Shown here: positions 59,153 to 59,536 of the stretch, piece by piece
Numbering within the stretch: position 1 is the first letter of the stretch
Layout of the letters: each line of letters starts with the position of its first letter
Assembly: GCF_003334405.1 (NCBI RefSeq)
Contig: NZ_QOWM01000005.1
Source: Escherichia coli
GTDB taxonomy: Bacteria > Pseudomonadota > Gammaproteobacteria > Enterobacterales > Enterobacteriaceae
Reading direction: 5' to 3' (one strand)
DNA: 64,000 bases
Notes under the pieces: generated by a model
The model's input: only the letters and a program-made list of their open reading frames with translations
Told to the model about the DNA's origin: nothing
Database searches by the model: none
Position numbers and translations under genes: made by a program

Positions 59153-59228
59153 TGGAGCGGGAAACGAGACTCGAACTCGCGACCCCGACCTTGGCAAGGT
59201 CGTGCTCTACCAACTGAGCTATTCCCGC
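59153..59228 (-). tRNA. glyY: tRNA-Gly (anticodon GCC), distal copy of the tandem array
   Basis: Minus-strand sequence GCGGGAATAGCTCAGTTGGTAGAGCACGACCTTGCCAAGGTCGGGGTCGCGAGTTCGAGTCTCGTTTCCCGCTCCA (76 nt, CCA encoded). Confidence 0.95.
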
Positions 59229-59264
59229 TTGGGTGGTCTGTGCTTTGCAGCACTTTTCAAATTT

Positions 59265-59340
59265 TGGAGCGGGAAACGAGACTCGAACTCGCGACCCCGA
59301 CCTTGGCAAGGTCGTGCTCTACCAACTGAGCTATTCCCGC
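59265..59340 (-). tRNA. glyX: tRNA-Gly (anticodon GCC), middle copy
   Basis: Identical 76-nt sequence, 112 bp from the neighbouring copy. Confidence 0.95.
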
Positions 59341-59376
59341 TTGGGTGGTCTGTGCTTTGCAGCACTTTTCAAATTT

Positions 59377-59452
59377 TGGAGCGGGAAACGAGACTCGAAC
59401 TCGCGACCCCGACCTTGGCAAGGTCGTGCTCTACCAACTGAGCTATTCCCGC
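59377..59452 (-). tRNA. glyV: tRNA-Gly (anticodon GCC), promoter-proximal copy
   Basis: Identical 76-nt sequence; first gene downstream of the promoter at 59509-59536. Confidence 0.95.
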
Positions 59453-59508
59453 GTACTACTTAATTTTGCTTTCGTAATTTTCGCATTTCTGCGTCGTTAC
59501 GGGAGGCG

Positions 59509-59536
59509 CATTATACGAGAAATCTTTCCCTCTGCA
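59509..59536 (-). promoter_or_regulatory. Predicted sigma-70 promoter of the tRNA-Gly operon
   Basis: Minus strand reads TTGCAG (-35) - 16 bp - TATAAT (-10) - GCGCC discriminator, with an A/T-rich block upstream (59537-59570) resembling an UP element. Confidence 0.65.

Follow-up and report, generated by a model that had tools for sequence, protein, structure and literature searches.

Near the end of a 64,000-nucleotide stretch of Escherichia coli DNA (contig NZ_QOWM01000005.1 of assembly GCF_003334405.1, hereafter the window), three tRNA-Gly(GCC) genes of identical sequence follow one another in tandem, and the two spacers between them are identical as well. The locus thus raises a double question: which transcription unit this array represents, and whether the perfect identity of its spacers belongs to that unit, to a recent change in one lineage or to the assembly. 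The array is almost certainly the chromosomal E. coli glyV-glyX-glyY operon (glyVXY), with its precursor processing, its transcriptional read-through into the neighbouring datA locus and a repeat driven by recombination. The identity of the spacers, in turn, seems to be a rare state of the window and a few other genomes, acquired either by recombination or in the course of assembly.

The glyV-glyX-glyY array

All three genes were called as tRNA-Gly(GCC) on the minus strand by ARAGORN (Table 1), and the tRNA model of Rfam gave 69.1 bits on every one of them against a gathering score of 29. Exact string comparison by script showed that the three 76-nucleotide (nt) genes are mutually identical, and so are both 36-nt spacers, whereas no further copy of gene or spacer was found by the script elsewhere in the whole window. 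Tandem Repeats Finder described the array as 2.7 copies of a period of 112 base pairs (bp), with 100% matches, no indels and a score of 604, a tandem repeat structure far above chance expectation. These methods agree with an earlier note on this DNA, made from the sequence alone, which had proposed three identical tRNA-Gly(GCC) genes at that period and had named tRNA prediction as a way to check them. Its description of the array stands and its sequence-only call was correct; what it lacked was the name of the operon and the link with datA. The operon, its promoter, the processing of its transcript and the coupling with datA are all known already from published work, and the discovery value of the locus is small.

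The identification rests on the surroundings as much as on the genes. The annotation of matching genomes, mapped onto the window with BLAST, places the array between orn and yjeV/queG, in the datA region. The annotated gene order in those genomes is rsgA, orn, three tRNA-Gly genes, a small open reading frame (yjeV), queG, nnr and tsaE, and the part from orn to queG was read in K-12-like genomes, KO11FL, ETEC4090 and others. The locus was present in 5,426 of 5,426 complete E. coli genomes. In K-12, where glyV-glyX-glyY lies at about 94.5 min between orn and datA, the genes, their order, their strand and their neighbours are the same, and the promoter core, the leader, the terminator, the DnaA boxes and the IHF site are identical to those of the window, as is the glyV-glyX spacer (spacer 1). 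The locus alignment with K-12 MG1655 revealed as differences only three positions of spacer 2 and one homopolymer G. The K-12 glyX-glyY spacer measures 35 nt and has a GUAA loop with a closing U.G pair, whereas the window holds at this place an exact copy of spacer 1, with 36 nt and a GCAA loop; the run upstream of the -35 hexamer is G6 in K-12 and G7 in the window. The window therefore departs from the K-12 reference, with its distinct spacers of 36 and 35 nt, by an allelic difference, and its membership in the operon stands. Nothing was found that contradicts the identification as glyV-glyX-glyY.

A K-12 origin of the DNA itself was suggested by the 100.0% identity to MG1655 scored over the 10 kb around the array, and is ruled out by the first 32 kb of the window, which are 97-99% identical to that strain. 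The nearest complete genome is that of the porcine isolate ETEC4090. Over the first 49 kb of the window the two diverge in three substitutions and one IS1, over the last 15.5 kb in three substitutions and two gaps of a single base.

By analogy with K-12, the three identical tRNA-Gly3 genes (anticodon GCC, reading GGC and GGU) would be transcribed into a single minus-strand precursor, and their threefold presence would provide gene dosage for the major glycine isoacceptor.

Table 1. Features of the glyVXY locus and its flanks (positions in the window)
Feature	Positions	Strand	Basis
orn (oligoribonuclease) coding sequence, upstream neighbour; stop TAA 59666-59664	59664..60209	-	annotation of K-12-like and ETEC4090 loci, BLAST
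Stem-loop followed by UUUU; probable orn terminator, which would insulate the tRNA promoter	59614..59653	-	fold, PMC10950094
A8-C-T6 block, about -42 to -56; UP-element-like as judged by position	59545..59559	-	sequence
G7 homopolymer, immediately upstream of -35	59538..59544	-	alignments
PglyV-X-Y core: -35 TTGCAG 59537-59532, 16-nt spacer, -10 TATAAT 59515-59510	59510..59537	-	sequence, published deletion, conservation
GC-rich discriminator GCGCCTCC	59502..59509	-	sequence
5' leader, about 50 nt, with hairpin CGUAA...UUACG around GCAGAAAUGC, about 59501-59473	59453..59503	-	fold
glyV, tRNA-Gly(GCC), CCA encoded	59377..59452	-	ARAGORN, Rfam, script; position agrees with K-12 annotation
Spacer 1 (type s1): AAAUUUGAAAA, hairpin GUGCU-GCAA-AGCAC 59365-59352, AGACCACCCAA	59341..59376	-	sequence, fold
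glyX, tRNA-Gly(GCC)	59265..59340	-	ARAGORN, Rfam, script
Spacer 2, exact s1 copy here; hairpin 59253-59240	59229..59264	-	sequence, script
glyY, tRNA-Gly(GCC)	59153..59228	-	ARAGORN, Rfam, script
TglyV-X-Y terminator/attenuator: imperfect hairpin 59130-59103 and U-run; overlaps datA DnaA box 1	59095..59134	-	fold, DnaA-box search
DnaA box 1 ATATCCACA	59134-59126	-	DnaA-box search
DnaA box 2 TTATCCACA	59067-59059	-	DnaA-box search; matches PMC10950094 mutagenesis primers
IHF site TATCAATAGGTTA, exact IHF consensus	58990-59002	+	search; matches PMC10950094 mutagenesis primers
Further DnaA boxes	58905-58897 (-), 58885-58893 (+)		search
datA core	58885..59067	.	DnaA boxes and IHF site; sequence identical to K-12

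Identical spacers: allele or artefact

In K-12, in ETEC4090 and in about 99% of the 5,426 complete E. coli genomes the two spacers are not the same. The first, s1, is AAATTTGAAAAGTGCTGCAAAGCACAGACCACCCAA (36 nt) and the second, s2, is AAATTTGAAAGTGCTGTAAGGCACAGACCACCCAA (35 nt), which has one A fewer, a GUAA loop and a closing U.G pair, both loops being of the GNRA type. Given that ETEC4090, the nearest genome, and almost all E. coli carry two unlike spacers, the s1/s1 identity of the window is probably a recent, derived, rare and lineage-specific state, of uncertain authenticity since conversion and artefact would look alike. At the locus, the window departs from ETEC4090 in the three positions that convert spacer 2 to spacer 1 and in the extra G.

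The frequency of this state was determined with a non-self-repeating query of 126 nt in which a tRNA gene is flanked on either side by the sequence of spacer 1, and for which an exact match in a single piece was required across the 5,426 genomes. It was matched by 24 of them. Sixteen hold three-copy arrays like that of the window, including a hybrid assembly of J53, which is a K-12 strain, and the manure isolate mip270_04; three match at one extra place in the record, and RM10740, the one that was read, has four copies; one, UTAK-1, has five. The other four are assemblies of laboratory strains, of which BL21(DE3), the one inspected, matches inside an evidently chimeric tRNA region. The s1/s1 array is hence to be regarded as a rare derived allele (16/5,426 complete genomes) and not as a property of the operon. 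Upstream of the array, the G run counts six in K-12 and ETEC4090, as in almost every E. coli genome, the G7 version being matched in 9 of 5,351 genomes, and no complete genome has both the s1/s1 array and G7.

Such a pattern fits one event of gene conversion or duplication-deletion plus homopolymer slippage, and equally well short-read polishing plus long-read homopolymer errors; the seventh G taken by itself could likewise be slippage or a sequencing error. That spacer identity and extra G are both artefacts of assembly and polishing, and not biology, is a serious possibility, though one that we incline slightly against. Short reads over a spacer that is flanked by identical 76-nt genes lack unique placement, so that polishing can copy spacer 1 over spacer 2, and long-read consensus often miscounts homopolymers; about four of the roughly ten differences between the window and ETEC4090 sit in this 400-bp locus and are exactly of these two error-prone kinds. 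Moreover, the assemblies of J53 disagree, CP028702 scoring like MG1655 (s1/s2) and 'J53-p1-pV-hybrid-1' being s1/s1, while six of the 16 genomes with the structure of the window come from one sequencing project (strains AVS0xxx), the nine genomes with G7 are scattered, and some 'complete' assemblies of laboratory strains hold plainly chimeric tRNA regions. On the other hand, window and ETEC4090 compare free of indels over 41 kb, and the assembly is therefore not generally error-prone. Genuine unequal recombination is attested by arrays of one, two, four and five copies, and expansions always add a unit of tRNA plus s1, as seen in both of those that were read (RM10740 and UTAK-1). The loss of one unit from a four-copy array, or the re-duplication of a two-copy s1 array of the KO11FL type, yields the very structure of the window. 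A run of seven G also falls inside its natural range, as the homologous run spans G3 to G7 across other genera.

Altogether, the repeat would evolve by unequal recombination and gene conversion, and spacer 2 would here have been overwritten by spacer 1, or appear so in the assembly. As this locus readily undergoes genuine unequal recombination and just as readily attracts polishing artefacts, differences in its spacers or copy number are unfit as strain markers without long-read support.

A recent homogenisation of the spacers, which the earlier note had read from their identity, is borne out by the s1/s2 pair of ETEC4090 and nearly all E. coli, and by the concerted evolution of the spacers between genera. 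The latter was followed in a pattern scan of species-representative genomes with at least 120 loci, and the counts across genera given here and below apply to the loci listed. Identical or nearly identical tRNA-Gly(GCC) arrays occur in Enterobacterales, Aeromonas, Acinetobacter and Stenotrophomonas, the commonest size being three copies (63 loci) and the largest seven, in Aeromonas and Mixta. In 22 three-copy arrays of Enterobacteriaceae, the identity of the spacers within a genome averages 0.92 (range 0.81-0.98, never 1.00), compared with 0.71-0.72 between genera regardless of the positions compared; any identical spacer pair was found in 3 of the 72 arrays with three or more copies. Paralogous units are thus more alike than orthologous units of different genera, and the two spacers evolve in concert. 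The arrays of Enterobacter, Citrobacter, Cedecea, Pantoea, Photorhabdus, Aeromonas and Acinetobacter share with E. coli the same or nearly the same tRNA, the head-to-tail layout and the short spacers, and those of Enterobacteriaceae a common spacer plan of AAAUUUGA, hairpin and ACCACCCAA. They differ from the E. coli array in the sequences of the hairpins, in spacer length and, for Aeromonas and Mixta, in the number of copies. The seven-copy arrays of Aeromonas show an alternation of spacer types that points to a higher-order repeat, and in that of Mixta tenebrionis five of six spacers are identical, suggesting recent amplification.

Copy number, which the earlier note expected to vary by unequal recombination, does vary within E. 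coli, from one (MC1061, OV2) through two (KO11FL) and four (RM10740) to five (UTAK-1). Fewer than three copies were found in 123 of the 5,426 genomes (~2.3%), those in which a one-copy query was covered; the matches listed for it are two-copy and single-copy arrays, 7 of 30 being single, including those of MC1061 and OV2. For a two-copy query without insertion, coverage was seen in 105 genomes, and for the three-copy architecture without insertion in 3,797. More than three copies occur in about 0.4%, the remainder of about 22 genomes having more than three copies or a rearrangement. The existence of three- and four-copy arrays in E. coli was noted in an earlier survey (PMC4539685), and duplication of the glyVXY operon has been reported from an experiment with ciprofloxacin (PMC8811037).

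The insertion in question is a 121-nt imperfect palindrome, carried by 1,607 of the 5,426 complete genomes close to the 3' end of spacer 1 and absent from the window. Related copies occupy spacer 1 or 2 in Citrobacter, Kluyvera, Superficieibacter, Silvania and Pluralibacter. It resembles an ERIC/IRU element, agreeing with the ERIC2 primer at 18 of 22 positions; a search of the window with this primer returned no ERIC copy. Where present, the palindrome would be co-transcribed within the tRNA precursor. A mobile origin of the array, as the tRNA cluster of a prophage or island or as an integration hot spot, has next to no probability: tRNA genes are frequent integration sites and about 30% of E. 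coli genomes differ in structure at this locus, but the variant structure is the ERIC-like insertion in spacer 1 and not an island, no integrase or phage gene is among the annotated neighbours, the same promoter-array architecture recurs across Enterobacterales, and the reading is refuted by the conserved synteny, the match extending to every complete E. coli genome and the neighbours being the same at every locus whose annotation was read.

A separate observation concerns the laboratory-strain records. Near the end of the BL21(DE3) record NZ_CP081489.1, tRNA genes (Gly x3, Ile, Ala, Lys, Glu) are pieced together with gene fragments that carry the flag 'partial in the middle of a contig', an arrangement that resembles an assembly chimera and inflates the counts of tRNA-Gly. 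The records of TOP10, XL1-Blue and Origami2-DE3 matched the s1-tRNA-s1 query near their ends as well, at 8 places each.

Promoter and precursor RNA

The promoter upstream of glyV had been described as near-consensus in the earlier note. This holds for the -10 hexamer, which matches the consensus at 6/6 positions, and fails for the -35 hexamer, with 3/6 against TTGACA; the latter begins at 59537, one base beyond the 59536 at which that description ended. The proposed segment itself proved to be the experimentally defined PglyV-X-Y, conserved across Enterobacterales. In the published deletion the primers end at ...TTTTTTGGGGGG and restart at GCGCCTCCCGTAACG, which means that exactly TTGCAG...TATAAT was removed, and downstream RNA was 'greatly decreased' (PMC10950094). 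The promoter sequence of the window is identical to this deleted segment. Moreover, the core TTGC(A/G)G-16-TATAAT-GCGC(C/A/T)(T/C)CCCGTA hardly varies between Escherichia and such genera as Proteus, Photorhabdus and Hafnia, and the discriminator GCGC(C/A/T)(T/C)CCC is nearly invariant across 63 distinct leaders. An A/T-rich stretch is found at the corresponding upstream position in other genera too; in the window, G7 moves this block by one base relative to the -35, as compared with G6. Initiation, expected at about 59503-59500, would be directed by a sigma-70 promoter whose -10 is perfect and whose -35 is weak, the two lying 16 bp apart, with a GC-rich discriminator after them and an A/T-rich block upstream; this single promoter would drive the polycistronic precursor in the source strain. 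Transcription of orn is reported to be mostly terminated upstream of PglyV-X-Y (PMC10950094); the stem-loop at 59653-59614 folds with -21 kcal/mol and a z of only -1.1, and is weak by energy alone.

Regarding regulation, the consensus -10, the 16-nt spacer (16-17 bp in the class) and the GC-rich discriminator are traits of stringently controlled promoters, and the discriminator together with the spacer length suggests stringent-type control. The promoters of rrnB P1 and tyrT likewise show a perfect or near-perfect -10, a 16-bp spacer, GCGCC immediately behind the -10 and A/T-rich DNA in the UP-element region (-40 to -60), and differ from glyVXY in that the latter has TTGCAG as -35 (3/6) and a G-run that splits the A/T block from it. 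Stringent control of glyVXY is treated in PMC10950094 only by analogy with other tRNA promoters, and the table of operon regulators in PMC10100675 names no regulator for this operon.

The precursor RNA is predicted to carry hairpins both in its leader and in its spacers. That of the leader folds with -8.4 kcal/mol (z -2.8), and its 5' arm (CCGTAACG) adjoins the discriminator directly. Each spacer is predicted to fold into a 5-bp hairpin with a GCAA loop (-7.2 kcal/mol), preceded by an A/U-rich single strand and followed by the unpaired AGACCACCCAA. Both kinds of hairpin persist in the minimum-energy fold of the full transcript, which was used solely to follow them, since the identical repeats mispair and leave the tRNA bodies uninformative. 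Among 52 distinct spacers of Enterobacteriaceae, 81% contain a stem of at least 5 bp, compared with 16% of shuffled sequences (maximum 29% in 1,000), in an alignment-free test whose statistics ignore kinship. For the leader, an alignment-free test anchored on the conserved 5' arm found a stem of 5 bp or more in 78% of the 63 distinct sequences, compared with 33% of shuffles. The stems of the spacers, usually closed by a loop of 4-5 nt, vary by genus with pairing kept (GTGCT/AGCAC, TGGCT/AGCCA, GTATC/GATAC, ATGCC/GGCAT, GGCC/GGCC and GTGTC/GACAC), and those of the leader show compensating changes across Enterobacterales (CGTAACG/CGTTACG, GTACCG/CGGTAC and CGTGACGG/TTGTCACG). Alignment served the comparison poorly: in the MAFFT alignment of the spacers the hairpin columns were out of register, and RNAalifold returned no consensus structure from a MAFFT alignment of 40 leaders because the 3' arms were out of register.

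The proposal that the spacer and leader hairpins are selected elements of the precursor RNA, with a function undescribed in the literature found, is a tentative one that we consider rather unlikely; for the leader hairpin in particular, no described function was found in the literature. Possible roles are the positioning of cleavage by RNase E or RNase P, or the blocking of 3' exonucleases between units. If the hairpins were indeed selected, the s1/s1 allele, the copy-number variants and the G6/G7 difference could alter tRNA-Gly3 supply, datA read-through and replication timing. The quantified concerted evolution and the conserved hairpins of this tRNA array could also guide a small study of its processing.

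Work from the McDowall laboratory revealed that RNase E cleaves the glyV-X-Y precursor in vitro 1 nt downstream of glyY, and that this cut 3' of glyY needs a single-stranded glyX-glyY spacer and an upstream tRNA unit (PMC4191395, PMC9841416). As the cut depends on the upstream unit, the tandem layout itself promotes processing. In the window, the 5-bp hairpin of each spacer, with its GNRA loop, would lie between an A/U-rich single strand and the short 5' leader of the next tRNA; RNase E would cut the single-stranded segments, aided by the adjoining tRNA unit, and RNase P and 3' exonucleases would then finish the ends, as in general tRNA maturation.

Some points weigh against this account of the operon. 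All mechanistic experiments were done on K-12 (s1/s2 spacers, G6) and not on the variant of the window, and neither direct ppGpp or DksA data nor a record of Fis sites for the glyVXY promoter was found in the literature. The spacer hairpin is absent in Pluralibacter gergoviae and in Kluyvera, and it is not essential, since some genera lack it. Finally, a generic promoter scan called no promoter at glyVXY; the -35, with its 3/6 matches, falls below the 4/6 rule of that scan, and given the published deletion and the conservation of the segment the missed call is not taken as counter-evidence.

A YrlA-like Y RNA is extremely unlikely to be encoded in any part of the array, whether instead of the tRNAs or besides them: the Rfam match at 59315-59176 on the minus strand (40.2 bits, E = 1e-6) lies far under the gathering threshold of 69 and straddles parts of two tRNA genes and one spacer, each unit scoring 69.1 bits with the tRNA model against a threshold of 29. 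The YrlA family contains a tRNA-like domain, which accounts for the cross-match.

Predicted read-through into datA, and the surrounding DNA

Between glyY and queG, the window contains a cluster of DnaA boxes and a single IHF site. The elements described for datA in PMC10950094, that is, boxes 1 and 2, the IHF site and the leaky terminator directly downstream of glyY, are found here in the K-12 sequence too. The same work showed that TglyV-X-Y, which overlaps DnaA box 1, is a leaky terminator, and that transcription reading through from the tRNA promoter over the IHF site of datA reduces the binding of IHF ahead of replication initiation (PMC10950094). In the glyVXY operon of the window, leaky termination after glyY would similarly allow transcription to run over datA and modulate IHF binding. 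tRNA transcription would in this way be coupled to the control of replication initiation, as shown in K-12 and as the identity of the sequences would predict here. datA is then a neighbour and functional target of glyVXY read-through, and not a part of the tRNA array. As a DnaA-inactivating locus, datA promotes the hydrolysis of DnaA-ATP; it adjoins glyY downstream, at 58885-59134.

Two further observations concern the rest of the window. The segment 15761-25201 (~9.4 kb) is absent from K-12 MG1655, where yjfZ and a truncated TetR pseudogene take its place. The ETEC4090 annotation lists for it a TetR regulator, a 3-ketoacyl-ACP reductase, a sugar-phosphate isomerase, an enoyl-CoA hydratase, a CoA transferase, an FAD oxidoreductase and a TRAP transporter. 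The IS1 copy of ETEC4090 lies between yjfJ and yjfI (41270-42037 of the compared stretch), whereas the window is without IS1, the site falling at about 41261-41269. The BLAST segments that flank the element overlap by 9 bases in the window, which is consistent with a target-site duplication.

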